In this document: piece after piece, positions 5,555 through 30,486 of the stretch
Numbering within the stretch: position 1 is the first letter of the stretch
How the letters are laid out: every line of letters starts with the position of its first letter
From: Roseobacter sp.
Lineage (GTDB): Bacteria > Pseudomonadota > Alphaproteobacteria > Rhodobacterales > Rhodobacteraceae
Direction of reading: 5' to 3'
Assembly: GCF_045106495.1 (NCBI RefSeq)
Contig: NZ_JBGCEQ010000031.1
Coordinates: forward strand, 54,727 to 118,726
DNA length: 64,000 bases
The notes under the pieces: model-generated
Seen by the model: only the letters and a program-made list of their open reading frames with translations
Database searches by the model: none
What the model was told of the DNA's origin: nothing
Position numbers and translations under genes: made by a program

Positions 5555-5688
5555 CGGGTTCTTTCTGCGCTGAGGGTGCCGTTGCAATCTCCTATACGTG
5601 CGGCTCAAGTCAATCAAATGCCCTTTTCGTTGCCGTTGGCCATAGCCTGTGCCACCTTGAACCAACCCGCAACCGCATTGGAGCCACC

Positions 5689-6090
5689 ATGCCCTCTTTG
5701 AAAATCAGTTCCGCGCAAATGGTGGCAGAGGCCCGCGCCCGTATCGAGGAAATAGAGACCCAGGACCTGATCGCTATGCTGGAAGATCCGAATGTGATTG
5801 TGGTCGACATCCGCGATATCCGCGAACGGCAGCGCAGCGGCTTTATCCCGGGCAGTTTTCATGCACCGCGTGGGATGATCGAGTTCTGGGTGGATCCTGA
5901 TAGCCCGTATTTCAAAGAGGTTTTTGCACAAGACAAAAAATTTGTGTTTCACTGTGCATCTGGTTGGCGGTCCGCACTTACAACGGCGACGTTGCAGGAC
6001 ATGGGGTTTGAAGCCTCGCATCTGAAAGAGGGTTTCTCTACCTGGGAAAAGCTTGGCGGCCCGGTGACCTATTCCGAGCCCAAAGAATAG
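5689..6090 (+). CDS. single-domain rhodanese (sulfurtransferase)
   Basis: 133 aa starting at ATG 5689 (MPSLK…), with the active-site loop HCASGWRS. It is a paralogue of the ORF at 24728-25126. Confidence 0.85.
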   Translation: MPSLKISSAQMVAEARARIEEIETQDLIAMLEDPNVIVVDIRDIRERQRSGFIPGSFHAPRGMIEFWVDPDSPYFKEVFAQDKKFVFHCASGWRSALTTATLQDMGFEASHLKEGFSTWEKLGGPVTYSEPKE

Positions 6091-6129
6091 CGGATCAAGC
6101 TGTTATCATGAGCAGCCAGATTTTGAGGC

Positions 6130-7227
6130 TTACAAGTTCTGCAAACCCGCATCCGCCCAACGGTGAACCGACAGTGTTTGACCACCGGCTTGATCCTTAA
6201 GCCGGTCGTCATCGGTCTGGGGGCGGGTGGTTTGTCCCGGCTGCAGTTCGAGTGGCAAGACGATGCTTTGTTCTGTCGGGACGCCATTGATCCTTGCAAG
6301 TAGATTGCGCGCGCCGGTGATCCCCATCAAGCGGCGCAATGTGCGTACTGTTGTCAATTTTATTGGCAATACGGACCCTAGGTCCAACCCATTGAAACCA
6401 ACGACGCCGATGTCTTCTGGTACGGAAAGACCTTGGGCCTGGCAGCACATCAAGCCGCCGAACGCCATGTGGTCATTCAAATAGCATATGATGTCTGGCG
6501 CATGTTCGGCGAGCAGGGTTTTGGTGCCTTCGAAACCGGTTACGAAGGCATTGCCCAAGAGCGGGCGGGAGGCCAAAACAGGTGTTGATCGTTGTTGCGA
6601 AAAGACATGTCGGATGCCCGCCAATCGGGCGTCAGCGCGTTTGTCATGTCCGCGGGGGGTGCTGACAAAGGCGGGCCGCTGATAGCCCATTTCAATGGCG
6701 TGCTCACCGATCAGACGGCCCGCTTCGAAATGATCAATGCCAACACAGATGTCGATTGGGTCGTCGGTATGGTCCCAGATTTCAAGAACTGGAATAGGAG
6801 AGGCTTTGAGCAGCTCGCGGGTTTCCGGGTGATGATCAGTGCCGGTCAAGATAATGGCTGCAGGCTGCCAAGACAAAAGGCGGCGTATCCAATTGAGCTC
6901 TGCCGTGCTGTCGTACTCGGTTGTATCGATCACGCTGGAATACCCTGCAGTATCGAAAGTCTGGCGCATGCCGTTCAAGATTTCTGCAAAGACATCGGCA
7001 GCAAAGGTGGGCAGTGAAATTCCGATCAGATTTGAGTTGGCTACAGCAAGAGAACGCGCGGCGCTATTGGGCATGTATTTCATTTGCCGTGCGATCTTGA
7101 GAATCTCTGCGCGCTTTTTTTCGGATACTCCTTCCACGCCGCGAATTGCACGCGAAACGCTCATGATGCTGACGTTGGCTTTTTGTGCGACATCTTCGAT
7201 TTTGGTTGGCTTTGATTGTTGTGACAT
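6130..7227 (-). CDS. LacI family transcriptional regulator
   Basis: N-terminal HTH (…IEDVAQKANVSIMSVSRAIRG…) plus a periplasmic-binding-fold C-terminal part. It is divergent from the ABC operon. Confidence 0.9.
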   Translation of the reverse strand: MSQQSKPTKIEDVAQKANVSIMSVSRAIRGVEGVSEKKRAEILKIARQMKYMPNSAARSLAVANSNLIGISLPTFAADVFAEILNGMRQTFDTAGYSSVIDTTEYDSTAELNWIRRLLSWQPAAIILTGTDHHPETRELLKASPIPVLEIWDHTDDPIDICVGIDHFEAGRLIGEHAIEMGYQRPAFVSTPRGHDKRADARLAGIRHVFSQQRSTPVLASRPLLGNAFVTGFEGTKTLLAEHAPDIICYLNDHMAFGGLMCCQAQGLSVPEDIGVVGFNGLDLGSVLPIKLTTVRTLRRLMGITGARNLLARINGVPTEQSIVLPLELQPGQTTRPQTDDDRLKDQAGGQTLSVHRWADAGLQNL

Positions 7228-8539: not shown

Positions 8540-9877
8540 ATGCTATCACTCAAAACGATCCTGACGGGAGCCGCGGTTTCTGTCTCCTGCGCAGGCATGA
8601 CGCTTGCAGACGGTCACGGCGGGCCTTATGCGCCCTACGCGGGCACCACGCTTGTGATCAACGTCCCGGCACATCCGCACTACAATGCGATGATGAAAGT
8701 GCTGCCGGAGTTCACCAAAGAAACCGGCATTGAGGTCGAAGTGGACCAGTTGCAGTACCTTAAGATGCGCGAGCGCCAGACCTTGGAGCTGACCAAGGAT
8801 GAAGGCGATTATGACATGATTGCCTATGTGGTTTTCTCAAAAGCGGATTATGTCTTTGCCGACCAGTTGGAAAACCTTGCGCGTTTTTTCATGAATCCGA
8901 AACTGGCAGATCCCGCTTATGATGCGGAAGATCTGATTGACGGTTATGTGGCCAACATCGGAATTGCTGGTGGTAAGAAAGGCTACCTGCCGGGCGCCAC
9001 GGGCTCTCTGTTTGGCATTCCGTTCGGGTCAGAGACCTCGGTCTTGGCCTATCGTAAGGATGTCTTTGAAAAGCACGGTATTGCCACGCCGGAAACCTAT
9101 GACCAGCTTCTTGACGCGGCCTGCAAAATCCCGGAACTGGAACCAGGAATGGGTGGCATGGCGTCGCGGGCAGCCTCCGGCCACCAAGCCAGCCACGCGT
9201 TCCTGTTGCACCTGGCGCCACTGGGCGGGCGTGTATTTGACGACGCATGGGAGCCAATCATCAACAATGAGGCGGGTGTCGCCGCAGCCAACGCGCTGAA
9301 AACCATCGTTGATTGCGGACCCGAAGGCTCACAGACATTTGGTCCAGCCGAAGCTGCTGCAGCCTTCAGCCAAGGCCAGGCCGCCATGTTCATGGACTCT
9401 ATTGCCTTTGCAGCAGGATTTGAGGATCCGAGTAAGTCAAAAGTGGCAGGTAACGTTGGTTATGCCCTGCATCCGGAAGGGGTGCGTCGCGGATCGCAAA
9501 CAGGCGGATTTGGTATAGCCATCCCTAGGAATGCGGAAAACAAGGAAGCCGCATTCCTCTTGATGCAATGGCTGACCTCGAAAAAGGGCGATCTGATGGT
9601 TGCCATGGCAGGCGGCAACCCGTCGCGGTTCTCTACGTATGAGAATGCCGAGTTGAATGCGAAATACCCATATTCCGCAACCTTCGGTGAAGCTCTCAAA
9701 CACGCAGACCCTGACTGGCGTCCAATCATCCCGACATGGGGAAAGATCAACGCGGACATCGGTACAACCATGAGCCAGGTTCTGACTGAGGGGCTGGACC
9801 CGCAGGAAGCTTTGGATGGTGTGGCCGAGCGTGCAAAAGCCATCATGGATGAAGCCGGCTACTACACCTGGCAGTAA
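8540..9877 (+). CDS. ABC transporter extracellular solute-binding protein (family 1, sugar-type)
   Basis: 445 aa with an N-terminal signal peptide (MLSLKTILTGAAVSVSCAGMTLA). Its position in the ABC operon supports the call. Confidence 0.9.
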   Translation: MLSLKTILTGAAVSVSCAGMTLADGHGGPYAPYAGTTLVINVPAHPHYNAMMKVLPEFTKETGIEVEVDQLQYLKMRERQTLELTKDEGDYDMIAYVVFSKADYVFADQLENLARFFMNPKLADPAYDAEDLIDGYVANIGIAGGKKGYLPGATGSLFGIPFGSETSVLAYRKDVFEKHGIATPETYDQLLDAACKIPELEPGMGGMASRAASGHQASHAFLLHLAPLGGRVFDDAWEPIINNEAGVAAANALKTIVDCGPEGSQTFGPAEAAAAFSQGQAAMFMDSIAFAAGFEDPSKSKVAGNVGYALHPEGVRRGSQTGGFGIAIPRNAENKEAAFLLMQWLTSKKGDLMVAMAGGNPSRFSTYENAELNAKYPYSATFGEALKHADPDWRPIIPTWGKINADIGTTMSQVLTEGLDPQEALDGVAERAKAIMDEAGYYTWQ

Positions 9878-9910: not shown

Positions 9911-10867
9911 ATGTCGCCCGATGCCCTAAAACCCTTGGACACCAGAGTTATGCAAAGCGCGAACGTCAATCGGCTCACGCCCTATCTGTTCCTTGCTCCT
10001 GCGGCCATCATCATGGCAATCGCACTGCTCTACCCCATCGGTTACATGGTCTATGCCAGTTTTCTTGACTGGAACCCGAGCCAGCGGATCGGTGAGGCGG
10101 AGTTTGTTGGTCTGCGGAACTACGCCAACCTGCTCGGCGACGCGAGCTTTCTGGAAAGCTTCTGGGTCACAATCAAATTTGCCGCCGTCGTTGTGACGCT
10201 CGAAATGCTGCTCGGTGTTGGCCTTGCTTTGCTGCTCGACCGCAACATCCGGGGCATGTCTCTATTGCGCACATTGTTCATCCTGCCAATGATGATCGCG
10301 CCCATCGTCGTTGGTCTGATGTGGCGTTATATGTACCACCCGACCGTCGGCATTTTTAACCGCACGCTGAAGTCCATGGGGCTTGAGCCAGTGCCTTGGC
10401 TTTCGAACGGCGATTGGGCTTTTGCCTCTGTTGTGATTGCAGATGTGTGGCAGTGGACGCCCTTTATTTTCATTCTCTCACTTGCCGCCCTGCAATCGTT
10501 GCCCCAATCGGCGATGGAAGCTTCACGCATTGACGGGGCAACAGGTTGGCAGCAGGTGATCTACATCAAGCTGCCTTTGATGCTGCCGGTCCTGATCGTG
10601 ACGCTGCTCTTACGCCTGATTGACGCCTTCAAAGTGCTCGAAGTCATCCTCGTATTGACCAACGGTGGCCCGGGGCTGTCCACGGAAATCCTGTCGCTGC
10701 GCATTTCGCGAACGGCTTCCGAATTCCGAGAGTTGGGAGAGGCTGCAGCAATGTCAAACTACCTGCTGATCCTGCTCATGCTGCTGACCTTCGGGATGTT
10801 CTTTTACAACAAAGCCATGGAACTCCGCGCTGCACGCTTGCGCAAAGCAGCCGAGGAGGACCTCTGA
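9911..10867 (+). CDS. ABC transporter permease (MalF/UgpA-like)
   Basis: Multi-TM ORF with an EAA-type loop (…EASRIDGATGWQ…). The start could instead be ATG 9950. Confidence 0.9.
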   Translation: MSPDALKPLDTRVMQSANVNRLTPYLFLAPAAIIMAIALLYPIGYMVYASFLDWNPSQRIGEAEFVGLRNYANLLGDASFLESFWVTIKFAAVVVTLEMLLGVGLALLLDRNIRGMSLLRTLFILPMMIAPIVVGLMWRYMYHPTVGIFNRTLKSMGLEPVPWLSNGDWAFASVVIADVWQWTPFIFILSLAALQSLPQSAMEASRIDGATGWQQVIYIKLPLMLPVLIVTLLLRLIDAFKVLEVILVLTNGGPGLSTEILSLRISRTASEFRELGEAAAMSNYLLILLMLLTFGMFFYNKAMELRAARLRKAAEEDL

Positions 10868-11739
10868 TGTCTGATAAAACTTTCGAACGCCAGAACCCGG
10901 CATTTTATGCGCTTCTTGTCGCGTTGGTGGTGATGTCGGTAGGCCCGATCGTGATGATGCTAAGCACATCGCTCAAACTGAATGTCGACATCATGTCCGA
11001 CGCCTCATCGTTGTTTTTCATGCCGACACTACGCAACTATGAAACCGCGCTTTGCGACTTTCTGTGGTATGAGGCGCCGCATATTGACTATTGCGACAAG
11101 ACCTTTGGCCGCGCGCTGGTCAACTCACTGATAATTGCTCTTGTGTCGACCGTTCTGACGCTGGTGATTGGCTGTATGGCGGCCTACGCACTGGTAAGGT
11201 TCCGGTTCATGGGGCGCGATTCCGTGTCACTGGCAACCTTGGCGATGCGCATGGTTCCTCCTGCAGTTTTGCTGGTACCCGTTTTCGGTATTTGGACCTT
11301 CCAGTTCCAGATCGATGGTACGCGTGCCGGGATTATTCTTGTCTATGTCGCGATGAACTTGCCGTTTGTGATCTGGATTTTGCAGAGTTTTATTGTGCAG
11401 GTTCCGATCCAGCTGGAAGAGGCCGCGCGCATGGACGGCGCCGGGCCGTTTCAGGTATTTTTCCTGGTTGTACTGCCTTTGATCAAACCTGGGCTTGCAG
11501 CCGCTGCGATTTTCACTTTTCGAGTGGCCTGGAACGAATTCTTGCTGGCCAACGCGCTGGCAGATCGAAATTCCCGCACGGTGCCCGTCACCATTGTGAA
11601 TTCCATGACGGAGTTTGACATCGACTGGGGGGTGATCATGGCAACAGGCATGTTGCTGGCCATTCCACCGATCATATTCACGTTTGTCGCATCGCGCCAG
11701 ATTATCACTGGTATGACCGCAGGAGCGGTCAAAGGCTGA
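10867..11739 (+). CDS. ABC transporter permease (MalG/UgpE-like)
   Basis: Multi-TM ORF with an EAA loop (…EEAARMDGAGPFQVF…). Its start overlaps the stop of the previous gene. Confidence 0.9.
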   Translation: MSDKTFERQNPAFYALLVALVVMSVGPIVMMLSTSLKLNVDIMSDASSLFFMPTLRNYETALCDFLWYEAPHIDYCDKTFGRALVNSLIIALVSTVLTLVIGCMAAYALVRFRFMGRDSVSLATLAMRMVPPAVLLVPVFGIWTFQFQIDGTRAGIILVYVAMNLPFVIWILQSFIVQVPIQLEEAARMDGAGPFQVFFLVVLPLIKPGLAAAAIFTFRVAWNEFLLANALADRNSRTVPVTIVNSMTEFDIDWGVIMATGMLLAIPPIIFTFVASRQIITGMTAGAVKG

Positions 11740-19939: not shown

Positions 19940-20305
19940 ATGCAGCCGGAAGCGGAACGAAATACGCAACAGGCGCTTCTTCGTGGCTTTATGCTGAAAT
20001 GCCCCTCTTGCGGGACGGGAAAGTCGATCCACAGATATCTGAAGGTCAAAGATCGCTGTGATCACTGCGGTCTTGAACTGCATCACGCAAGTGTGGACGA
20101 CGGGCCTGCATATTTTACTCTGATGATCGTGGTGGCGCTTCTTTTCCCCCTGCTGGCGGTCATCTATACCCAATTTGATCCAGAGCCGCTTGGGGTAGCG
20201 ATTTCACTGATGTCTTTTGCAACAGCGTTAGCCCTTTGGTTTTTACCTCGTGTCAAAGGCATGTTCATCGGCTTGCAATGGGCCAATCGGCTCTACGGTT
20301 TTTGA
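19940..20305 (+). CDS. DUF983 family small membrane protein with zinc-ribbon
   Basis: 121 aa with CPSCG…CDHCG followed by two TM helices, the typical DUF983 layout. Confidence 0.75.
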   Translation: MQPEAERNTQQALLRGFMLKCPSCGTGKSIHRYLKVKDRCDHCGLELHHASVDDGPAYFTLMIVVALLFPLLAVIYTQFDPEPLGVAISLMSFATALALWFLPRVKGMFIGLQWANRLYGF

Positions 20306-20356: not shown

Positions 20357-20995
20357 TTAATCAACGGGTGGGTTGAGCCATCGCGAAGGTTCAAAAGGCC
20401 TGTCCAGCGCACGTTCTACCAATTCAAGATGATCCTGGCCGTAAAACGGGTCACCATCGACAATATAGGTTGGTGAGCCAAAGATATTTTGGGTCCGCGC
20501 CCAATCGCAGTTATCCCGCAGCTGGCGCTGTATCTGTTCGGATGCCGCGTGCGCCAAAAGCTCTTTCGAATCATGCCCCAAGCCTGCGGCTACCGCTGCG
20601 AGCGTGTCGCGATCAGACAGGTCCGCATCGTCGCGCCAATGCGCTTGCAATAAGCCATGTGCCATTTGATCGGTTGCCTCGCCCCTGTTGCCAAGCGCTA
20701 GGATCAAACCAGAGGCGAGGCTGTAATCGGTGTCGTGATGGGTCGGTCGGTGCGATAGAATTTCTACCCCGCGGTATGCCGCCCAACGCTCGATTTCGCG
20801 GCCAAAGAAGTAGTCTACATGCGCCTGTGTGCGAGCGCGGAAGGGTTGGCTGCCTTGTGCTTCGACGACAGGCGATAGGATGATTGGCCGATGGATCAAA
20901 GTGACTGCGTTGGTCGCGCAGAGTCTTTGGAGTTGTGTCGAGCCTAAGTAGGCAAAGGCCGAATGGGCCGAGTAGACATATTCGATCACTGGCAT
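20357..20995 (-). CDS. DsbA-fold / kappa-GST (2-hydroxychromene-2-carboxylate isomerase-like) protein
   Basis: 212 aa from ATG 20995. The N-terminal …IEYVYSAHSAFAYLG… Ser-type active-site region and the C-terminal …FGSPTYIVDGDPFYGQD… are typical of the family. Confidence 0.75.
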   Translation of the reverse strand: MPVIEYVYSAHSAFAYLGSTQLQRLCATNAVTLIHRPIILSPVVEAQGSQPFRARTQAHVDYFFGREIERWAAYRGVEILSHRPTHHDTDYSLASGLILALGNRGEATDQMAHGLLQAHWRDDADLSDRDTLAAVAAGLGHDSKELLAHAASEQIQRQLRDNCDWARTQNIFGSPTYIVDGDPFYGQDHLELVERALDRPFEPSRWLNPPVD

Positions 20996-21083
20996 GGCAT
21001 TTTTCCTGCGGGCAATGGTGAATAACGGTTTCACGCACGTTGCAAGTTGAGCTCAATGGTTGGGGGCTTGTTCTGATGCTTTG

Positions 21084-21602
21084 CTAAGCCATTTCGATGC
21101 TCAGCGGTACAACGCGGCCGAGCGTATGGCCGACGGGTGATGTCGCAATTACCTTTTTGTGAAGGGCCTGCAAGGCCTCATCCGATCCATCGCTATCCAT
21201 GGACACTTGCACACTGATGTCGCTGAAGCCGGCATTGCCGTCTTTCAGTCCCAGAAACGTATGTAGGTCGAGATTTCCTTCGACTTCAATTTTCATATCC
21301 TGGATCGTGATGCCTGCTGCCGTGGCGTTTGCCGCATATCCTACCGCAAGGCAATTGCCCAAAGCGCTCAAGAGTTGCTCGACTGGATTTGGCCCGGTAT
21401 CCGTGCCGCCCAATTGAGCAGGTTCGTCAGATTTCGACGGTGCGAAATCGCGCACCTGAGCCTCTGACCGAAAGCCGCCATTCCAACGAACATCAGCCCG
21501 CCAGGTGGTCTTTGCGACCTGGGGTTCCGATGCAATCTTTTCGGCAAGGCTCGCCACCTTACCTATCTCAACGTTGTTCATCTGCGTGGTCACTGTTGTC
21601 AT
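21084..21602 (-). CDS. OsmC/Ohr family protein (single-Cys variant)
   Basis: …DEPAQLGGTDTGPNPVEQLLSALGNCLAVG… is the OsmC core. The usual second Cys (CPV) reads SPV here. Confidence 0.8.
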   Translation of the reverse strand: MTTVTTQMNNVEIGKVASLAEKIASEPQVAKTTWRADVRWNGGFRSEAQVRDFAPSKSDEPAQLGGTDTGPNPVEQLLSALGNCLAVGYAANATAAGITIQDMKIEVEGNLDLHTFLGLKDGNAGFSDISVQVSMDSDGSDEALQALHKKVIATSPVGHTLGRVVPLSIEMA

Positions 21603-21661
21603 TTACTGTTCCTCCCTATTTTACCGTCAAGACAGCTACCCATGCATCGAGCTGGGACTGT

Positions 21662-22126
21662 TTAGATTTTCAGATCGAGCCTTGGCTTCCAGAACGGTCG
21701 GAAAAGTTCGATCTTTGGGCAGCGGTTCATGACCACTTTTAGCCCAGCCTCCTCTGCCAAAGCGGCGGCGCGTTCATCATAGACGCCGATCTGCCCCCAC
21801 AGAACCTTTGCGCCTATGGCTATGGCCTGCTCCGCAATGCCATAGAGTTCTTCTTTGCGGCGAAAGACTTCAACCATGTCCACAGGTCGATCAATTTCGC
21901 TCAGCGACCGGTATACTTTCAAGCCCCGGATGTCTGTCAACGCAGGGTTCGGGTTGACGGGGATCATGTCATATCCGGTTTCATGCAATACCCGCAGAAC
22001 CCCGTAACTGAATTTCGTTTTATCGGCGCTGGCACCCACCATTGCGATGGATTTCACCGACTTCAGAATATCTGCCAGATACGCGGGATCGTAGTCGAAA
22101 ATGTGATCAATGTCTGCTTCGGGCAT
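21662..22126 (-). CDS. CoA-binding domain protein (YccU/YneT-like)
   Basis: 154 aa with a Rossmann-like …IAMVGASADKTKFSYGV… and …IPVNPN…. The start lies 2 nt after the ferredoxin stop. Confidence 0.8.
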   Translation of the reverse strand: MPEADIDHIFDYDPAYLADILKSVKSIAMVGASADKTKFSYGVLRVLHETGYDMIPVNPNPALTDIRGLKVYRSLSEIDRPVDMVEVFRRKEELYGIAEQAIAIGAKVLWGQIGVYDERAAALAEEAGLKVVMNRCPKIELFRPFWKPRLDLKI

Positions 22127-22128
22127 TG

Positions 22129-22497
22129 TCAGGTCTCTTTCGGAACGGCAATATTCGCCTTCAGTTCGTGGGGTTTCAGTGGGTCAAGAAACGGGTTGCG
22201 ATAGAGCTTGTCGTGGCTTTCGACGCCAATTTCGAGCGTACAATCGGTGAGCGGACGTGCGACGCAGAGAATGACATAGCCGTTGTTGATTTGACGATTG
22301 TTGAGTGCGACCTGTCTGCGTTGATCGACTTGGCCAGCCGTCAGTTTGGCGGCACAGGTTATGCATCCACCGTACTTGCAACCGTAGGGTAAATCGACCC
22401 CTTGCGCGCGCAAACTTTCCAGTAAGGGGCGCCGCGCGTCGACCTGAAACTTGGCGTTTTCGCGGTTGGTGAGCGTTATGGTTCGGTGTTCTGTCAC
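22129..22497 (-). CDS. plant-type [2Fe-2S] ferredoxin
   Basis: Ligand pattern …YGCKYGGCITCAAKL… plus …ILCVARP… (C-x4-C-x2-C…C). The start overlaps the SBP56 stop by 4 nt. Confidence 0.85.
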   Translation of the reverse strand: MTEHRTITLTNRENAKFQVDARRPLLESLRAQGVDLPYGCKYGGCITCAAKLTAGQVDQRRQVALNNRQINNGYVILCVARPLTDCTLEIGVESHDKLYRNPFLDPLKPHELKANIAVPKET

Positions 22498-23849
22498 AAC
22501 CAGATGTCACTTGTGCAATCGCCGCCCGGGTAGCGTGTCTCGTGACAGCGGCTTGGGCCATTGGGCTCTTTGCCAAAGTCGACCATGAAGTCCTTGTTGA
22601 GGCTCATGCCGCCGTTCTCCACATCGCAATCGATCATCATCATAACGCCGCCCTTCTCGCAGATCTCTGGATAGAACTGATTGTCCCATGTGGAAAAAAG
22701 CGAGGTTGTGACATAGAGGCGTTTGCCGTCGAGGCTCAGCTGGAACATCTGCGGGCCGCCGGCGACCTCGACGCCATTCACAACCGGGGCCTTGCCAAGC
22801 AGGCCACCCATGTAGACCTGACCGGTAAGAACCGGCTTGTGCGGGTCTGTGATGTCATATTGGCGCATATCACCATGTAGCCAGTTGTTGAGGTAGAGGT
22901 ATTTGTCATCCATTGAGACCAGGATCGCCGACATCACGCCAGGGATTGGGATGGGCCATTCCGGGTGCGGTTCGTTGTCCACATCGATGATCTTTTCCCA
23001 TTCCCATTTGCCTGCCTCGGATTTCCAGAAATGGATCACGTTTGCGCTGAGTGCAGCGCCACAAAAACCATGTGTGCTGTCGGGGTTGTGATGGAATTTC
23101 ACCTCCAGCGGGATAAGGCCGTCTTCGCCAAGATACAGGCTTTCCACCGGTTCGCGTTTCTCAAAATCCCAGATGTGCAACCTGCGACCGTATTTTAGGT
23201 GCCCCACTTCTTCGAGATCGAAGCCGGGCATGAAGGTGTTGGGCGCCGCCCATTCGGAAGAGACCATTACATTGTGCCGGGGCTGGTACCAAAAATCATA
23301 ACCAAAAGGGATGTCGCCCATAGAGTTTTCCCAGCGACCAATGATCTCGAAATCCTTGTTCATGTGGAGATAGCCGCCCGGCGCCTCGCCCATCGCATCG
23401 CCAAGGAAGGAAATAATGATTTCGCAGCCTAGGCAATGTACCGTGTGTGGGCCTGACAGATTGGCCTTGGCCTTGATCTCGGCGCCATCAATTACTTTGT
23501 ACAGGCGCGGTGCACGCGGGTTGCTGGCTGTGTCGATTACGTGGATGTTGTTTGAACGGACGCCTGGGACCAGTAAGTACTTGCGCGACATGGAACCGTC
23601 GTTGTGACATGACGAACAGGCGTTCCAGCCCATATGGTGCAGTTCGTCGCCAATGCCGGGCATTTCCAGGCGGTGGATTACCTGACTGTAGGTGCCGCTG
23701 TCCGGGTCTGCATCCACCGTGGCCAAATAGTCAGGCTTTTGAATGCCGGTGCCGGTGTAAATCGCAATCGAATAGAGCAATCTCTCTCGTGGCGCTTTGA
23801 TTGCTTCTGCGGGGCTTGCGTAGCCCGGACCGCAGCATGTTTCCGCCAT
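22494..23849 (-). CDS. mtoX: selenium-binding protein family (SBP56) / methanethiol oxidase-like, no signal peptide
   Basis: 451 aa and collinear by eye with human SELENBP1 (MAETCCGPGYASP…, …LHHMGWNACSSC…, …GYDFWYQPRHNVM…, …RYPGGDCTSDIWL). Confidence 0.9.
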   Translation of the reverse strand: MAETCCGPGYASPAEAIKAPRERLLYSIAIYTGTGIQKPDYLATVDADPDSGTYSQVIHRLEMPGIGDELHHMGWNACSSCHNDGSMSRKYLLVPGVRSNNIHVIDTASNPRAPRLYKVIDGAEIKAKANLSGPHTVHCLGCEIIISFLGDAMGEAPGGYLHMNKDFEIIGRWENSMGDIPFGYDFWYQPRHNVMVSSEWAAPNTFMPGFDLEEVGHLKYGRRLHIWDFEKREPVESLYLGEDGLIPLEVKFHHNPDSTHGFCGAALSANVIHFWKSEAGKWEWEKIIDVDNEPHPEWPIPIPGVMSAILVSMDDKYLYLNNWLHGDMRQYDITDPHKPVLTGQVYMGGLLGKAPVVNGVEVAGGPQMFQLSLDGKRLYVTTSLFSTWDNQFYPEICEKGGVMMMIDCDVENGGMSLNKDFMVDFGKEPNGPSRCHETRYPGGDCTSDIWL

Positions 23850-23879
23850 TGAGTCTATCGCCCTCCCGCAGTATGTATT

Positions 23880-23899
23880 TTATTACTTTGCGATAATAA
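23880..23899. promoter_or_regulatory. inverted repeat in the mtoX / iclR divergent spacer (candidate operator)
   Basis: TTATTA-N8-TAATAA inside a 72-bp AT-rich spacer. Confidence 0.3.
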
Positions 23900-23921
23900 T
23901 GTTCTTACGGAAAGAGAAAAA

Positions 23922-24692
23922 GTGTACTTAGAACGCCTTTTGTCAATTGTAGAGGTTGTTGCCGGGTTAGGGGGCTCAGCTGCAATGACGGTGTCGGAGA
24001 TTGCCGAAGCGACCGGTGTACCCAAGCCCAGCCTCTACCGGCAGGTGAACGATCTGGTGGAAGCAGGTTTGCTGGAACCGCGCGAGAATGGGCGCTATGG
24101 GATTGGTATGCGCGCCCGACGTTTATCAGATCAGTTTGTCTCGCCGGACGACGTTAAGCGTCTGGCCTTGCCGTTGCTGAAAAAGGCCGCGCGCGAGATC
24201 GGTGTTGCTTTTTTCCTGGCGCGTCTCCGCGGAGCGTCGGTCGATGTCATCCACGCTGAGGTGCCCGTTACTGGCGTCTCCTATCTTCATCCGGGTATCG
24301 GCGCGCGACCGTTGCATGCCTGTTCATGCGGCAAGGCAATCGCCGCATTTTGCGAAGGCCACGCATTGACCCAAGTACTTTCTGGCCGTTTGCGGGCTTT
24401 TACGGATCATACCAAGACGGACTTAGGGAACATCAGGGATGAATTCCTAACCATACGGGCCCAAGGCTATGCAGAGTGCGTCGAGGAACTGGAACAAGGG
24501 ATTTGCTCCGTCGCGGCACCGATAAAACGTGCGGACCAACCGGTGGAGTACAGCATTGGCGCCACAGGAACGTTACGCGTGTTCACGCCGTCATTCCGAG
24601 CATCGTTGGGTAGTAATCTGGTCGCGGTATGTTCAGAAATGAGCTATCTTTTAGAAGACCAGGACGTTGGCGCAGCGCATCGAGCTGGCTGA
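23922..24692 (+). CDS. IclR family transcriptional regulator
   Basis: N-terminal wHTH (…VSEIAEATGVPKPSLYRQVNDLVEAGLL…) plus an IclR effector domain. GTG start. Confidence 0.85.
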   Translation: MYLERLLSIVEVVAGLGGSAAMTVSEIAEATGVPKPSLYRQVNDLVEAGLLEPRENGRYGIGMRARRLSDQFVSPDDVKRLALPLLKKAAREIGVAFFLARLRGASVDVIHAEVPVTGVSYLHPGIGARPLHACSCGKAIAAFCEGHALTQVLSGRLRAFTDHTKTDLGNIRDEFLTIRAQGYAECVEELEQGICSVAAPIKRADQPVEYSIGATGTLRVFTPSFRASLGSNLVAVCSEMSYLLEDQDVGAAHRAG

Positions 24693-24727
24693 GTGGTAAA
24701 ATTGAACTTCAATACTGGAAACAAACA

Positions 24728-25126
24728 ATGCCTCAAAACATTACAAAAGGCTCAAAGGAGATCGTAAAAGCCGCTCTTGCGGTCGTGCCAGCGATCAACG
24801 TGGAAGACGCAGCCAAACTAGTAGGATCTGAAGATCACGTCTTTGTCGATCTGCGCGACGGAACCGAGCAAGTCAAAACAGGCGTGATTCCAGGCGCTAT
24901 CGCGTCGTCTCGCGGCATGATGGAATTTCACATTGATCCTGAAAGCCCGGCGCACAATCCGGCATTCAACCAGGATAAAACCTATGTTTTCTACTGTGCT
25001 TCTGGTGGTCGTTCAGCGCTTGCCGCTGCCGTAGCAATCGATATGGGTCTGACACCAGTTGTCAATTTATCCGGGGGCGTTGCGGCTTGGTCCAAAGCAG
25101 GCGGTGATCTGGTGCCGCTTGGGTGA
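24728..25126 (+). CDS. single-domain rhodanese (sulfurtransferase)
   Basis: 132 aa from ATG 24728, with the active-site loop YCASGGRS. It is a paralogue of 5689-6090. Confidence 0.85.
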   Translation: MPQNITKGSKEIVKAALAVVPAINVEDAAKLVGSEDHVFVDLRDGTEQVKTGVIPGAIASSRGMMEFHIDPESPAHNPAFNQDKTYVFYCASGGRSALAAAVAIDMGLTPVVNLSGGVAAWSKAGGDLVPLG

Positions 25127-25366: not shown

Positions 25367-26170
25367 CTAGATCTCGCTTGGGTTGTTTAGGCGGGACAGG
25401 TCCGGAGACCCAAGGCAGGCGAGGCAGTGATGCGCCGACCTTTCTGCCTCCATGCCACGCCAATGGGTCGGGAAAAGATGGCGGGGCAACGGCGGTATGC
25501 GCAGCGCGACGCGCCGCCACGTATGGACAACAAGAACCCGCATGACAACGATGGACAGGGCCCTTGTTAAGGGGCTTTTTTCCAGACGATTTTCAAGCAA
25601 ACCCAATTGATGTGCAACAAGATTGGTCTGTTCGATGAATTCCGGAACAAACAGTTTCTCCAACATCCAAATGGGCAGTTCGTCGCAGGCCTTCAAGCGC
25701 TTTTGGAAATGGTCAGGATCCATTGTAAGTTGAGATGTGATCGTCAAATTCGTAGCGACCGAATAGCCTTCAACGCCATCACCGGCGCGATGCATCGCGA
25801 TCCAGGCTGTTTCCGGCAATTCAATCGATTGATAAATTCGCGGGCTTGCAGCGATTGTTTCGCGCCGCCCTAGTTCGGTCAGCTTGTAGATACTGTTGCG
25901 ACCTTGCCGTTCGTTTTGGAGCCAACCGTCTTTGCGCAAACGATGCAACGCCACGCGAATGGCTTCGGGTTTGACTCCGATTGCCGAAAGAATCTTGTTC
26001 AGGGTTTGTGTAGATACCTGGTCCTCATTACTTTGCGCGAGGTCGCCATATAGCGAAACAAGAAGCGACCAGACACGCGGAGGCTGATCATTGGTAAGCA
26101 ATGAAATCAAATGTTTGAGGTCTGCATCTGCCATAGCAAGTTGTTTAGGGGCCGCCGCAGGAAATGCCAA
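25367..26170 (-). CDS. paaX: phenylacetic acid degradation operon repressor PaaX
   Basis: PaaX-type N-terminal wHTH (…SLLVSLYGD…, …IRVALHRLRKDGWL…). It sits directly after paaZ, and the start overlaps the paaZ stop. Confidence 0.8.
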   Translation of the reverse strand: MAFPAAAPKQLAMADADLKHLISLLTNDQPPRVWSLLVSLYGDLAQSNEDQVSTQTLNKILSAIGVKPEAIRVALHRLRKDGWLQNERQGRNSIYKLTELGRRETIAASPRIYQSIELPETAWIAMHRAGDGVEGYSVATNLTITSQLTMDPDHFQKRLKACDELPIWMLEKLFVPEFIEQTNLVAHQLGLLENRLEKSPLTRALSIVVMRVLVVHTWRRVALRIPPLPRHLFPTHWRGMEAERSAHHCLACLGSPDLSRLNNPSEI

Positions 26171-26172
26171 GA

Positions 26173-28215
26173 TCAGCGGGAATAGGCATTCATTGTCAGC
26201 AGCTCGTATTCCGCAACTGTTTCATCGGCCTGATTGGTCAGCGTCGCATGCCAACGTATCTCGCCATAGTCTTGGTTACGCGGTGTCTTCTTCTTGACTG
26301 TGAGACGCACTTTTATGCTGTCGCCTGCTTCAACGGGCTTCATGAAGCGCAGATTTTCAAGGCCGGTGTTGGCGAGCACCGGGCCTTCATTCGGTTCGAC
26401 GAACATGCCCGCTGCGAAGGAGATCAAGAGGTATCCATGGGCAACACGGCCCGGGAAAAACGGGTTTCGCGCCGCGGCCTGTTGATCCATGTGAGCATAG
26501 AACTTGTCGCCGGTGAAATGGGCAAATGTCTCAATGTCCTCGGTTGTGATCTGACGCGCGGCGGTTCGGATGGTTTCGCCGATGGCAAGCTCATGGAAGG
26601 TGCGGGTGAACGGGTGCGCGGGCCCCTTGATCTCGGTCGCACCGGGCACCCATTTTTGACCGATTGCTGCGATGATGTCAGGGCTGCCCTGAATTGCAGT
26701 CCGCTGCATGTAGTGCATCACACCGCGAATCCCGCCCAATTCCTCGCCACCGCCAGCACGACCAGGGCCTCCATGCACCATATGGGGTAACGGGGAGCCG
26801 TGACCGGTAGCGTCTTTCATACTGTCGCGGTTATTGAAATAAAGCCGTCCGTGGAAAGAGCCCGCGCCGATAGCAATCGCGCGCGCCACAGCAGGGTCAT
26901 GGGTGAAAACAGATGCCACAAGCGAACCTGCGCCGCGGTTCACAGTTCGGATCGCATGATCCAGATCGCGGTAACCCATTACAGTGGAAACCGGACCAAA
27001 GGCTTCAGTTTCATGAATGCGGGTAGCCTCGTCTGGATTTGCGCAGTGGAACAGCATTGGCGGCAGGAAAGCACCTTTCTCCTTGTCGGCGCCGCTCACT
27101 TCGAAGTTGTCCGGGTCACCAAACACGCGCTTGGCTTCTGTCCCAATGATCCGGGCCTTTTCCAGCACATCTCTCTTTTGGGCGTTCGAAACCAGCGCAC
27201 CCATTTGGGTTCCGTCCGCCTGCGGGTCACCGATGACGGTTTTGGACAGTTTGGCCTTCAAGGCCTCAAGCACGGTGTCAACTTGCGCCTGTGGTGCCAG
27301 GATACGGCGAATGGCGGTACATTTTTGGCCTGCTTTTGTCGTTATTTCGCGGACGACTTCCTTGATGAAAATCTCAAATTCAGTCGTGCCAGGTATTGCG
27401 TCCGGTCCCAGAACTGAAGCGTTCAAACTGTCTTGTTCTGCTGTGAAGCGGACCGCGTTCTTCTGGATATGCAAGGCCGAACGCAATTTCAACGCCGTGT
27501 CAGCGGATCCGGTGAAGCTGACCACGTCCTGACAGGTCAGCTGATCCAGCGTGTTGCCGAGACCGCCCGAAACCAGTTGCAAGGTACCTTCGGGAAGATG
27601 GCCACTTTCGATCATTACTCTTACAGCCAGCTCCGTAACGTAGCAGGTCGAGGTCGCGGGTTTGACAATAGCCGGAACGCCAGCAAGCAAGGTAGGGGCC
27701 AGCTTTTCGAGCATGCCCCAAACCGGGAAATTGAACGCATTGATATGGACCGCAGCCCCTTGTAGCGGCGTGCAGATATGCTGACCCAAGAAGTTCCCGC
27801 CCTTTGACAGAACTTCGACATCACCTTCGAGGTACAAATGTGCGTCAGGTAACTCGCGACGACCTTTGGAGGCGAAGACAAACATGGTGCCGATGCCACC
27901 GTCGACGTCGATCATGTGATCGGATTGCGTAGCGCCCGTAGCAAAGCTTAGATTGTAGAGTTGCTGTTTCTGCTCAGTCAGACAAAGCGCCAATGCTTTG
28001 ATCATACGCGCGCGGTCATGGAAGGTCATCGCACGCAGGGCAGGGCCGCCTGTGTTACGGGCGTAGTCAAGCATTGCAGCGGTATCAAGCGCGTCGTTGC
28101 CTGCGCGTGCCATCACCCGTCCGGTGGCGGCATTTTCGATGTCGCGAGCTCCCTTGCCGGGCGCAACCCAGTTTCCGTTTACAAAACTGCGCACGTCCAG
28201 AACGCCCATGAACAT
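26173..28215 (-). CDS. paaZ: bifunctional oxepin-CoA hydrolase / 3-oxo-5,6-dehydrosuberyl-CoA semialdehyde dehydrogenase PaaZ
   Basis: ALDH domain plus a C-terminal MaoC hot-dog (…FAHFTGDKFYAHMD…). It is 680 aa from ATG 28215; the ORF-track start at 28386 adds an implausible leader. Confidence 0.9.
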   Translation of the reverse strand: MFMGVLDVRSFVNGNWVAPGKGARDIENAATGRVMARAGNDALDTAAMLDYARNTGGPALRAMTFHDRARMIKALALCLTEQKQQLYNLSFATGATQSDHMIDVDGGIGTMFVFASKGRRELPDAHLYLEGDVEVLSKGGNFLGQHICTPLQGAAVHINAFNFPVWGMLEKLAPTLLAGVPAIVKPATSTCYVTELAVRVMIESGHLPEGTLQLVSGGLGNTLDQLTCQDVVSFTGSADTALKLRSALHIQKNAVRFTAEQDSLNASVLGPDAIPGTTEFEIFIKEVVREITTKAGQKCTAIRRILAPQAQVDTVLEALKAKLSKTVIGDPQADGTQMGALVSNAQKRDVLEKARIIGTEAKRVFGDPDNFEVSGADKEKGAFLPPMLFHCANPDEATRIHETEAFGPVSTVMGYRDLDHAIRTVNRGAGSLVASVFTHDPAVARAIAIGAGSFHGRLYFNNRDSMKDATGHGSPLPHMVHGGPGRAGGGEELGGIRGVMHYMQRTAIQGSPDIIAAIGQKWVPGATEIKGPAHPFTRTFHELAIGETIRTAARQITTEDIETFAHFTGDKFYAHMDQQAAARNPFFPGRVAHGYLLISFAAGMFVEPNEGPVLANTGLENLRFMKPVEAGDSIKVRLTVKKKTPRNQDYGEIRWHATLTNQADETVAEYELLTMNAYSR

Positions 28216-28252
28216 ATCCTCTCGGGAGATTCGTGTTAACAAGTAATATATT

Positions 28253-28264
28253 GACCGTCCGGTC
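28253..28264. promoter_or_regulatory. palindrome GACCG-TC-CGGTC upstream of paaZ (candidate TetR/PaaR operator)
   Basis: It lies 38 nt upstream of the paaZ start. It has the same half-sites as the palindrome at 36563-36580. Confidence 0.45.
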
Positions 28265-28744
28265 GGTTTATGCAAGCCTTGCCGCATGCCGATGATACCA
28301 ACCTGACCCGTGCAAAAAATGCATGCGCAAGACCGCGAACACTGGACGAAAACTATGCTGCACTTTCGAGGCTGCCTGAGCTGCATAGAAAACAGGATAC
28401 ATCTTGCTCGACGTTCGAATTCGGAAATAGCCCGAGGTTTCTGGATGAGGGTTCACCGTTGACCGGGCGCGAACGGGACCATTGCAATGGTCTGGATTCA
28501 AGCCGTCGCCATCGTTTGAAGCGGCACTACTTGCTCAACCTGAGAAAAACGGTGCGCGCACTTCACGTGCCTTTGATCCAATCGGGAGTTCGTCTGATCG
28601 TCCTCGTCACTAATGCCAGGCGCCCCGGAAATGCACTGAAATGGCGCCGAATTCAAATGAATGGCTTGAAGTGCGAAGCGACGGGCACATGAGCGGGAAA
28701 GCGGACTTTCTGAAAGACTGCACAGGCTTTCAAGGGGTAGCGGG

Positions 28745-29179
28745 ATGACGCCAAAAGAAAGGGCTAAGGCTTCTGCGGTGGCTATGTGGGCGGGTGATGG
28801 CGCATCCAATTGGATGGGCATGTCTATGGTAGAGGTCGACGAGGGCCGTGCAATTCTGCAGCTAACGGTCGAGCAACACCACTGCAACGGGCACGGTATC
28901 TGTCATGGCGGAGTGACTTTTTCTTTGGCCGACAGCGCCTTTGCCTTTGCTTGCAACAGCCGCAATCAGGCGACGGTTGCGCAGCACAATACCATCACTT
29001 ACATCGCGCCCAGCCGCCTTGGCGACACACTGACTGCAACGGCATGCGAAGTATCTCTGATCGGACGCAACGGGGTCTATGATGTCCAAGTCATCAATCA
29101 GGATGGCACGGTAACTGCGGAATTCCGTGGCTTGTCTCGCGCCATCCAAGGCACGCTTTTTGACGAGGTAGACCCATGA
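28745..29179 (+). CDS. paaI: hydroxyphenylacetyl-CoA thioesterase PaaI
   Basis: Hot-dog thioesterase with …NGHGICHGGVTFSLADSAFAFAC…. It overlaps the paaK start. Confidence 0.85.
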   Translation: MTPKERAKASAVAMWAGDGASNWMGMSMVEVDEGRAILQLTVEQHHCNGHGICHGGVTFSLADSAFAFACNSRNQATVAQHNTITYIAPSRLGDTLTATACEVSLIGRNGVYDVQVINQDGTVTAEFRGLSRAIQGTLFDEVDP

Positions 29180-30486
29180 AAGATCTGAGCCCAAAACCTG
29201 GAGAGCTTGATCCGATTGAAACCGCCAGCCGAGACGAGATCATAGCTCTGCAGATTCGGCGGATGAAATGGTCGGTGCGCCATGCCTATGACAACGTGCC
29301 GATGTATCAGGCCCGATTTGATGCCTGTGGCGTCCACCCGGACGATTTGAAAGATCTTAAGGATCTCGCCAAATTTCCGTTCACCTACAAAGATGACCTG
29401 CGCAACAATTATCCTTTCGGCCTGCGCGCCGTACCGAAAGACCAGATCGTGCGGCTTCATGCGTCGTCGGGGACCACGGGCAAGCCTACAGTGGTGGTCT
29501 ACACGGCAAATGATATTGACGTTTGGGCCGACACTCTGGCCCGGTCGTTGCGCGCTTCTGGTTTGCGCAAAGGTGATGTGGTGCACAATGCTTATGGCTA
29601 TGGCCTGTTCACAGGAGGGCTTGGCGCGCATTACGGCATCGAACGGCTGGGTGCAACGGTCGTACCAATGGGGGGTGGGCAAACCGAAAAGCAAGTAAGT
29701 TTGATCACTGATTTTCAGGCTGACGGCATCATGGTGACCCCATCCTATGTGTTCAATATTCTGGAAGAATACCGCAAACAGGGAATGGATCCGCGAGAGT
29801 CATCGCTCAAAGTCGGGGTTTTTGGTGCAGAGCCCTGGACCAACGCGATGCGACATGAGATTGAAGCGGCCTTCGACATGCACGCCGTTGATATCTATGG
29901 TCTCTCGGAAGTTATGGGGCCGGGTGTGGCCAACGAATGCGTTGAAACCAAAGACGGCCTGCACGTCTGGGAAGATCATTACTACCCCGAGATCATCGAT
30001 CCGGTGACGGGTGAAGTTCTGGAAGACGGCTCAGAGGGCGAACTGGTTTTCACGACGCTGACCAAAGAAGGCATGCCGATGATACGTTATCGAACTCGCG
30101 ATCTAACGCGTCTGCTGCCGGGCACCGCGCGTAGTTTGCGTCGAATGGAAAAGATCACCGGGCGCACGGACGACATGATCATTCTGCGTGGCGTAAATGT
30201 GTTTCCCACTCAAATTGAAGAGCAGGTCATGGCCACAGATGGTCTGGCGCCCTATTTCCAGATCGAGCTCTATAAGTCAGGTCCGATGGATGCCATGCGC
30301 GTGTTGGTCGAGGCGAACCCCGGTGCGACCAGCGATTCAAGCCGACGACATGCGCAAGACGCACTGAGCAAACGGATCAAGGACAAGGTCGGTGTAAGCG
30401 CTGAAGTGCGGGTATCTGATCCCGGCGGAGTTGCCCGGAGTGCGGGTAAGGCCGTCCGGGTTATCGACAAGCGAGCGGAAGGGTAG
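29176..30486 (+). CDS. paaK: phenylacetate-CoA ligase PaaK
   Basis: …HASSGTTGKPTVV…, …YGLSE… and a length of 436 aa, in paa gene context. Confidence 0.95.
   Translation: MKDLSPKPGELDPIETASRDEIIALQIRRMKWSVRHAYDNVPMYQARFDACGVHPDDLKDLKDLAKFPFTYKDDLRNNYPFGLRAVPKDQIVRLHASSGTTGKPTVVVYTANDIDVWADTLARSLRASGLRKGDVVHNAYGYGLFTGGLGAHYGIERLGATVVPMGGGQTEKQVSLITDFQADGIMVTPSYVFNILEEYRKQGMDPRESSLKVGVFGAEPWTNAMRHEIEAAFDMHAVDIYGLSEVMGPGVANECVETKDGLHVWEDHYYPEIIDPVTGEVLEDGSEGELVFTTLTKEGMPMIRYRTRDLTRLLPGTARSLRRMEKITGRTDDMIILRGVNVFPTQIEEQVMATDGLAPYFQIELYKSGPMDAMRVLVEANPGATSDSSRRHAQDALSKRIKDKVGVSAEVRVSDPGGVARSAGKAVRVIDKRAEG

Follow-up and report, generated by a model that had tools for sequence, protein, structure and literature searches.

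The window analysed here is the whole stretch of 64,000 nucleotides taken from Roseobacter sp. (contig NZ_JBGCEQ010000031.1, positions 54,727 to 118,726 of the forward strand). It carries, on its minus strand, a gene for a protein of the SBP56 family, followed by genes for a plant-type [2Fe-2S] ferredoxin and for a YccU-like protein that is expected to bind coenzyme A (CoA). The SBP56 gene (22494-23849) encodes 451 amino acids and matches Pfam SBP56 (PF05694) with 679 bits over residues 5-451. The ferredoxin (22129-22497; 122 amino acids) matches Fer2 with 53.5 bits, and the CoA-binding protein (21662-22126; 154 amino acids) matches CoA_binding_2 with 126 bits. The TGA stop of SBP56 overlaps the GTG start of the ferredoxin by 4 nt (GTGA), and 2 nt separate the ferredoxin stop from the ATG of the CoA-binding gene. 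These junctions can be read directly in the sequence, and the positions and family calls made in an original prediction for this locus agree with the list of open reading frames (ORFs) and with Pfam profile searches of each ORF. That the three genes constitute a functional unit is well supported by the comparisons described below, which join a known enzyme to a near-universal accessory unit that appears to be new.

A genome scan with one genome per species retrieved at least 591 SBP56 relatives, from which the 80 best loci were taken: 24 from SAR11, 9 from SAR116, 27 from Rhodobacterales, 9 from other alphaproteobacteria, 5 from gammaproteobacteria or unclassified Pseudomonadota, and 6 from Acidimicrobiia. 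Neighbours were counted by six-frame searches with the window proteins within 6 kb of SBP56. The CoA-binding gene lies immediately downstream on the same strand in 80/80 loci, and the ferredoxin gene, likewise downstream and on the same strand, in 79/80. In a neighbourhood test set beforehand, the proposal that both partners are conserved beside SBP56 has thus been borne out, in the reverse direction as well (see below). The junctions are similarly constant. SBP56 and ferredoxin overlap in 75 of 79 loci, by exactly 4 nt in 49, and the ferredoxin to CoA-binding junction always falls within -14 to +5 nt. The triad is kept at 74-77% SBP56 identity. On a conjugative plasmid of Phaeobacter inhibens it is accompanied by rhodanese, metallo-beta-lactamase-fold (MBL), enoyl-CoA hydratase, acyl-CoA synthetase, and GcvT-like genes, with a divergent IclR gene; the RefSeq names of the cluster genes are generic only. 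At the DNA level the window matches this plasmid in the three-gene block only (77.7% identity).

The linkage also survives rearrangement, which has been counted in favour of a functional unit. A Chloroflexota genome has the two partners the other way round, next to genes for IclR, an MBL protein, and rhodanese, and in another locus (L088) the CoA-binding and ferredoxin genes remain together 3 kb away from SBP56. At 65-71% SBP56 identity the ferredoxin is usually retained and the third gene is variable: the slot holds a CoA-binding gene, nothing (Marmoricola and three IMG/VR contigs), an unannotated polytopic membrane protein, or a PpoB2-family protein. The IMG/VR contigs (L095-L097) are short, are classed as viral, and carry SBP56 (65-66% identity) and ferredoxin without a CoA-binding gene; they are probably cellular fragments. 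Some SAR11 loci have a second, divergent CoA-binding paralogue (~88 bits) directly after the first (L017 12164-12601, L019-L021, L023, L028-L030, L033, L035, and L037).

The ferredoxin itself has unusual features. Its ligands, C-X4-C-X2-C-X29-C (Cys40/45/48/78), are invariant in 80 sequences, and its 30-residue C-terminal tail (SHDxLYxNPF...LDPLxPHELK) is nearly so. No counterpart of this tail was found in solved plant-type ferredoxins in the Protein Data Bank (PDB). The protein scores below the curated TIGR02008 cutoff (75.5 vs 81.15 bits), its 122 amino acids exceeding the ~97 of ferredoxins without the extension, and has a weak NCBIfam match to YfaE (E=2.8e-8). AlphaFold2 gives a confidence score (pLDDT) of ~90 for the core and below 50 for the tail, which suggests that the tail may fold on a partner. 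A search of 1.84 billion proteins returned only 21 representative clusters at E<=1e-30, beyond which the matches fade into generic plant-type ferredoxins aligned over the core only; the tail signature SH[DGE]x[LF][YF]xNPF occurs in 44 of the best 150 representatives. The CoA-binding protein is spanned in full by CoA_binding_2 (PF13380) and matches PDB 2DUW (E=2e-34); its Cys136 is 99% conserved and its C-terminal tail is invariant. A copper-binding motif is evident in neither protein.

One representative, P0371, is a clean fusion of ferredoxin and CoA-binding protein. A metagenome scan with it yielded 80 loci, mostly from soil and rhizosphere, in which SBP56 stands directly upstream of the partners in 68/68 informative cases, the other 12 contigs being too short. 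In 31 of these 80 loci, drawn from many independent samples, a single ORF encodes both partners as a fusion. Because of the constant upstream SBP56 and these 31 fusions, the ferredoxin and the CoA-binding protein behave as one unit whose linkage to SBP56 holds both ways. The fusion examples (L109-L134 and others, such as L110 2227-2901 and L114 4001-4675) lie on soil and rhizosphere contigs and possess a short linker right after the NPF residues in place of the distal ferredoxin tail. Other candidates for fusion were discarded: P0001 and P0081, which resembled SBP56-ferredoxin fusions, are explained by a mis-called start and a chimeric assembly, and P0372, P0407, and P0500 appear to be frameshift artefacts.

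Expression data are available from one related lineage. In metatranscriptomes of NAC11-7 Rhodobacteraceae, consecutive IMG genes annotated as CoA-binding, ferredoxin, and selenium-binding are all differentially expressed, with shifts in the same direction (ratios 0.42, 0.34, and 0.47); in that study the three genes sit under three unrelated functional categories and were not treated by the authors as a unit. No mention of ferredoxin or CoA-binding partners of methanethiol oxidase was found in the literature searched, a coverage that excludes subscription journals, in accordance with the suggestion that the gene combination had not been described.

The enzyme of the triad belongs to a known clade. 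The window SBP56 has no leader, as originally predicted: position 2 of the Pfam model falls on residue 5, residue 13 of PDB 2ECE (E=9e-124) aligns with residue 10, an upstream in-frame extension is impossible, and there is neither an RR motif nor a hydrophobic stretch. The MtoX-type label that had been attached to it is not upheld, as the NF052453 equivalog model gives 149.7 bits against a cutoff of 650; a signal peptide of the MtoX type is lacking in the window protein, and no SCO1/SenC or MauG gene lies downstream of it, where Fer2 and CoA_binding_2 proteins are encoded instead. A cytoplasmic SBP56 with a partner set unlike mtoX-SCO1-mauG is therefore what the locus holds. The three motifs, GWNACS and HTV(I)HC along with GGDCS(T), define the 'cluster 1' methanethiol oxidases of Rhodobacteraceae (Cao et al. 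2024), and the window protein carries them as GWNACS, HTVHC, and GGDCT (C78, C139, and C445). The alignment in the 'cluster 1' supplement resolves into two branches, one RdMTO-like and one RlMTO-like (Sulfolobus-like). With the N-terminus of RdMTO, from Roseobacter denitrificans (WP_011568565.1), the window protein shares ~71% identity over 115 residues rebuilt from the supplement by optical character recognition, as well as the CC-GPGY N-terminus and the CSSC motif. The residues H71/72, H135/138, D185, and E249, together with C445, are present and (nearly) invariant among relatives, and the same copper ligands and C-terminal cysteine have been listed for RdMTO and human SELENBP1. Judged by these relatives, from which its activity is extrapolated, the window protein is a member of the SELENBP1/RdMTO-type clade of cytoplasmic copper methanethiol oxidases.

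As an enzyme, such a cytoplasmic variant is not new: RdMTO, of the same SELENBP1-like clade, had already been purified and assayed, and copper-dependent methanethiol oxidase activity has been reported for RdMTO and SELENBP1 (PMC10936201, PMC13603461). RdMTO degrades methanethiol, with products that are disputed between two laboratories. One reported sulfane sulfur and no H2O2 with a His-tagged enzyme of unmeasured copper content; the other reported H2S, H2O2, and formaldehyde, with a strict dependence on copper and only 0.01-0.17 Cu per protein. A Cys-S-S-CH3 adduct has also been described, along with the sulfane-sulfur product. Marine genomics already assigns the role of methanethiol oxidase in SAR11, SAR116, and Roseobacter to this gene (KEGG K17285) as a matter of routine, and the window type falls in protein clusters with thousands of members.

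Divergent from SBP56 lies a gene for an IclR-family regulator (23922-24692, plus strand; HTH_IclR and IclR_C, 79 bits), separated from it by a spacer of 72 bp as counted in the sequence. A divergent IclR gene accompanies the triad in 26/80 genome loci. The TTATTA-N8-TAATAA palindrome pointed out previously in this spacer is real, and it is better seen as overlapping one, at -47, of two operator-like sites (23880-23918, minus strand): TTCTCTTTCCGTAAGAA at 23918-23902 and TTATCGCAAAGTAATAA at 23896-23880. These sites, at -69 and -47 from the SBP56 ATG and 22 bp apart, follow the motif TT[ACT]TC-N7-[GA]A[GT]AA, which recurs at the same positions (~-69 and -47) in 16 of the 26 IclR-bearing loci. 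All 51 loci that lack IclR are devoid of it, and shuffling predicts 0.003 occurrences per sequence. The P. inhibens plasmid locus has the motif as well. A third palindrome of this kind, TTCTCTACGTATGAGAA at 9629-9645 of the window, lies inside an ABC substrate-binding gene (8540-9877) and is probably due to chance.

Among 72,556 plasmids, only 7 encode a match to the window IclR at E<=1e-15. The best is the regulator of the P. inhibens triad, and the second by E-value is SPOA0268 of Ruegeria pomeroyi (2e-30, 35% identity), located directly upstream of mtoX-SCO-MauG. Unrelated IclR proteins come next at E=6e-24, and the weaker plasmid matches are not near SBP56 genes. The R. pomeroyi mtoX operon has been shown to be induced by methanethiol; the operator architecture of the SPOA0268 locus differs from that of the window. 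By similarity, the kinship of the window IclR to this methanethiol-operon regulator is suggestive only.

The other genes pointed out around the triad differ in how far the comparison links them to it. IclR (26/80) and rhodanese (15/80) recur among the genome loci, and an OsmC gene of the same subtype and in the same position recurs in non-marine lineages; OxyR-KatG and DUF983 are never linked (0/80), and the DsbA/kappa-GST gene recurs in just 2 of ~180 loci. The single-domain rhodanese (Rhodanese, PF00581, 58 bits; 132 amino acids; plus strand) occupies an ORF that opens at 24629 and ends at 25126, and homologue N-termini indicate that it probably starts at ATG 24728 (24728-25126). Its active-site Cys90, within CASGGRS, is 100% conserved. 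In the genome loci it mostly follows directly after the CoA-binding gene, as its homologues do in 6/80 metagenome loci. Often it is then followed in related loci by a persulfide-dioxygenase-like MBL protein (4/80 genome loci) resembling the dioxygenase half of Blh; the window holds the rhodanese without the dioxygenase.

Downstream of the CoA-binding gene, after a gap of 59 nt, lies the OsmC-family gene (21084-21602, minus strand; OsmC, 67 bits). Its product has a single cysteine, Cys84, with Ser in the position of the resolving Cys, and is not a two-Cys OsmC/Ohr hydroperoxide reductase; on NF041052 it scores 64 against a cutoff of 95. In 11/80 metagenome loci the CoA-binding gene has a same-strand OsmC gene directly downstream, and in 4 an OsmC gene lies upstream; the products retain the first Cys (L-[GA]-[NS]-C-L) with Ser replacing the resolving one, as in the window. 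In non-marine lineages, as in the window, OsmC is thus a recurring accessory gene outside the core. A canonical two-Cys OsmC was also seen in one locus (L101 3191-3745, minus strand), divergent from SBP56-Fer2-CoA-binding. Next in the window comes a DsbA-fold, HCCA-isomerase-like gene (20357-21034, minus strand; DSBA, 82 bits), whose product lacks CxxC and whose likely start is ATG 20995, giving a gap to OsmC of 88 nt as predicted, or of 49 nt from the first GTG. A DSBA gene lies 1 kb downstream in 2/80 metagenome loci, probably from related contigs, and the window gene is probably a mere neighbour. A promoter and terminator scan gave no terminator in the gaps that separate the CoA-binding gene, OsmC, and the DsbA-fold gene, and no signal beyond shuffled expectation; these genes may or may not be co-transcribed.

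The DUF983 gene (19940-20305, plus strand; 91 bits) was said to be flanked by OxyR-KatG. KatG is secure (1136 bits), and the LysR-type regulator beside it is OxyR-like and falls under the curated cutoff (219 vs 329). OxyR-KatG and DUF983 are mere neighbours. OsmC, DSBA, DUF983, KatG, OxyR, and PaaX each scored 0/80 in the genome loci. On the other side, a phenylacetate catabolism cluster (25367-30486) adjoins the rhodanese, with PaaX and PaaZ (959 bits) on the minus strand and PaaI and PaaK (686 bits) on the plus strand; linkage of this cluster to SBP56 was found in no relative, PaaX being absent within 6 kb of SBP56 in all 80 genome loci.

Further neighbours recur in the genome loci: an enoyl-CoA hydratase of the PRK08139 type in 34/80, directly upstream in all 24 SAR11, a DmdA-like aminomethyltransferase in 18/80, and an acyl-CoA synthetase in 8/80. 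In SAR11 (L016-L046, for example L020 8388-17517) the triad lies inside a conserved block with the enoyl-CoA hydratase directly upstream, a GbcA-like Rieske oxygenase farther upstream, and a dimethylglycine-dehydrogenase-like gene, electron-transfer flavoprotein (ETF) alpha and beta, and ETF-quinone oxidoreductase downstream; this block is a neighbourhood of one-carbon and methyl-group oxidation. A lone SBP56 (69% identity; L094 4571-7266) has a different setting: it is flanked by an Rdx-family gene (SelW/T/H-like, PF10262) on one side and by two MBL-fold genes on the other, with radical-SAM and ThiF genes close by.

The explanation favoured here, which we hold to be reasonably probable, is that the triad is a conserved cytoplasmic module for methanethiol oxidation, with SBP56 as its core, the ferredoxin and the CoA-binding protein as its accessory unit, IclR as its regulator, and the ferredoxin servicing the copper site. 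The three proteins would be made from one tightly coupled transcript, with the divergent IclR acting as repressor or activator through a two-site operator. The enzyme would oxidise methanethiol to formaldehyde and reduced or sulfane sulfur and would need copper, as extrapolated from RdMTO. The ferredoxin would dock on SBP56 through its invariant tail, predicted to be disordered alone, and would service the copper site with single electrons, either for reductive activation and maintenance or as a relay that changes the reduction of O2. Its CoA-binding partner may present the CoA thiol, with Cys136, and thereby take up sulfane sulfur or help to deliver Cu(I). Sulfane sulfur and peroxide could then be dealt with by the rhodanese, alone or together with persulfide dioxygenase, and by the 1-Cys OsmC. 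A direct interaction of the ferredoxin with SBP56 is favoured because it is the most widely retained partner, is made in step with the enzyme, and has a tail of the docking type. Sulfur-handling genes and genes for methanethiol supply, resembling those of dimethylsulfoniopropionate (DMSP) demethylation, recur nearby and have been counted for this explanation; the low copper content (0.01-0.17) and the disputed products of recombinant RdMTO would both fit missing partners.

Several observations weigh against it. In vitro, copper alone is enough for methanethiol turnover by RdMTO and human SELENBP1, with H2O2 given off, so that neither partner is strictly required for catalysis. Some SBP56 relatives at 61-69% identity stand alone, as do the haloarchaeal ones, and one Paracoccaceae metagenome-assembled genome (MAG; L077) lacks the ferredoxin. 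A recurrent ferredoxin reductase was not found in the neighbourhood, nor was a function for the YccU family in the literature searched. The presence of a PpoB2 copper chaperone in the third slot of one lineage favours maturation over catalysis. We also know of no ferredoxin or CoA-binding partners of eukaryotic SELENBP1.

A possible, if tentative, alternative is that the ferredoxin and the CoA-binding protein serve in assembly only, as cytoplasmic counterparts of SCO1 and MauG without a role in turnover. They would load or reduce copper, for instance in the form of a Cu(I)-CoA thiolate, or generate a cofactor derived from the protein. Both accessory genes of the periplasmic clade encode maturation factors, and each bacterial SBP56 clade has accessory genes of its own (SCO1 and MauG in the periplasmic one; a His-rich membrane protein in 5/5 RlMTO-like loci; PpoB2 once in the clade of the window). 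Recombinant RdMTO, with its 0.01-0.17 Cu per protein, becomes active once copper is supplied. In a Stappiaceae MAG (L098 5660-6948) the order is IclR, SBP56, ferredoxin, and a PpoB2-family 'copper chaperone' (PF09948, 153 bits), whose gene overlaps the ferredoxin stop in place of the CoA-binding gene; the founding member of PpoB2 hands copper specifically to the tyrosinase that is its operon partner. PpoB2 occurs, however, in just 1/101 loci, and was rejected as a general partner. Moreover, formation of a quinone cofactor needs oxidants whereas ferredoxins are reductants, the two partners show no evident copper-binding motif, and translational coupling and retention in the streamlined SAR11 suit a stoichiometric subunit at least equally. 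The notion that the ferredoxin acts as an electron relay in catalysis, which was the original prediction, would make the enzyme a ferredoxin-coupled dehydrogenase or monooxygenase in vivo and not an H2O2-releasing oxidase. We regard this as rather unlikely. The stoichiometric co-production implied by the coupled junction and the docking-type tail speak for it, and the stoichiometry of the reaction is unsettled, one group having found no H2O2 with a partner-free, copper-poor enzyme and another having found it. SAR11 is not known to have a catalase, and cytoplasmic H2O2 would then be costly. Against a relay, copper-loaded RdMTO alone yields H2O2, H2S, and formaldehyde together, no linked reductase is seen, and the ferredoxin is fused to a CoA-binding domain and not to a flavin reductase.

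The unit might instead relay sulfur. An adduct on Cys445, either a persulfide or a methyl disulfide, would be taken off in the form of CoA persulfide or CoA-S-S-CH3, which would then be reduced or passed to rhodanese and persulfide dioxygenase. The Cys-S-S-CH3 adduct and sulfane sulfur known for RdMTO, the rhodanese gene (with or without an MBL persulfide dioxygenase) directly downstream in many loci, and the conserved Cys136 of the CoA-binding protein are consistent with such a route. We nevertheless judge it unlikely, given that rhodanese is found in only ~15-20% of loci, that CoA binding by the window protein is predicted from family membership, and that mutation of the C-terminal Cys reportedly reduces and does not abolish activity. 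The last alternative, that the arrangement reflects inherited gene order only or that the pair serves neighbouring CoA-dependent enzymes like those of DMSP demethylation, draws on the frequent enoyl-CoA hydratase, acyl-CoA synthetase, and DmdA-like neighbours. It is already disfavoured and very improbable: CoA-dependent neighbours reach at most 34/80 loci as against 79-80/80 for the pair, and the linkage has withstood changes of gene order, transfer across phyla, and fusion, and is also seen from the reverse direction (68/68).

A stronger version of the favoured module, which is offered as a speculation more doubtful than the module itself, is that the most abundant methanethiol oxidase of bacteria includes the pair as an obligatory subunit that has so far escaped notice, acting through ferredoxin coupling without release of H2O2 or through a new kind of CoA-dependent copper loading or repair in the cytoplasm. 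The in-vitro stoichiometries (H2S and H2O2 vs sulfane sulfur) would in that case describe an incomplete enzyme. One of the major routes that organic sulfur takes in the sea leads through the methanethiol released by DMSP demethylation, and the SBP56 type of the window is the version found in SAR11, SAR116, and Roseobacter, which surveys treat as 'the' methanethiol oxidase. If the enzyme normally works with its ferredoxin and CoA-binding partner, assays should contain both, and for the most abundant cells of the ocean it may be necessary to revise whether sulfur ends up as H2S or as sulfane sulfur and whether O2 yields H2O2. The YccU family and the tailed ferredoxin subfamily would also gain a first functional context, and the conserved operator-like sites with IclR provide a handle on methanethiol-responsive regulation.

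Parts of the module can be compared with known systems. Where related loci encode an MBL protein after the rhodanese, it scores 363 bits with the dioxygenase half of Blh, and the rhodanese Cys90 is conserved; unlike in the Blh/CstB type, the genes are split and confined to a minority of loci, the window having no dioxygenase. In YfaE-NrdB and in arrangements of the NosR/NosZ type, the gene of a metalloenzyme has next to it one for a small Fe-S protein, which keeps the metal site of the enzyme active. The window resembles YfaE-NrdB in the tight linkage of a small [2Fe-2S] ferredoxin to one metalloenzyme; it differs in that its enzyme is a copper enzyme, for which a maintenance role would be an analogy only.

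The RlMTO-like branch (PDB 2ECE-like, from Sulfolobus) shares with the window protein a leaderless SBP56 with the three Cys motifs, but its identity to that protein is ~39%, and it has neither the CC N-terminus nor CSSC. Plasmid SBP56 matches at 38-41% belong here, and their assignment to the MtoX type was rejected. The neighbour in this branch is not a ferredoxin and CoA-binding pair but a His-rich polytopic membrane protein (5/5 loci: L005 4883-5554, minus strand; L087 6393-7037, plus strand; L106 4400-5026; L107 4372-5013; L108 4368-5036). This downstream protein, of 210-224 amino acids, is homologous across Nioella, Phaeobacter, Phyllobacterium, Deinococcus, and Azospirillum, conserves the His motifs HG[VLM]NP[GA]MGW and AHGAG, and is matched by neither Pfam nor NCBIfam; it may act as a partner that supplies metal. 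Nioella sp. (L005) possesses both cytoplasmic SBP56 branches (5558-6955, minus strand, and 9944-11353, plus strand) about 3 kb apart, each with an IclR of its own, and the ferredoxin and CoA-binding partners accompany only one of the two.

RdMTO and SELENBP1 are closest to the window enzyme, being of the same SBP56 branch and having CC-GPGY, CSSC, HTVHC, GGDC(S/T), and the copper ligands without a leader. In contrast to the window protein with its partners, they have been studied as single proteins, and no paper was found that names a ferredoxin or CoA-binding partner. The MtoX of Hyphomicrobium sp. VS and Ruegeria pomeroyi is unlike the window SBP56 in being periplasmic, with a signal peptide of 24 residues, and in having a copper chaperone and a di-haem MauG as its accessories. 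Its operon shares with the window the protein superfamily and the presumed reaction; in Roseobacter mtoX operons there is an upstream IclR that may be related to that of the window (35% identity), and in both systems the oxidase is encoded with two dedicated accessory genes.

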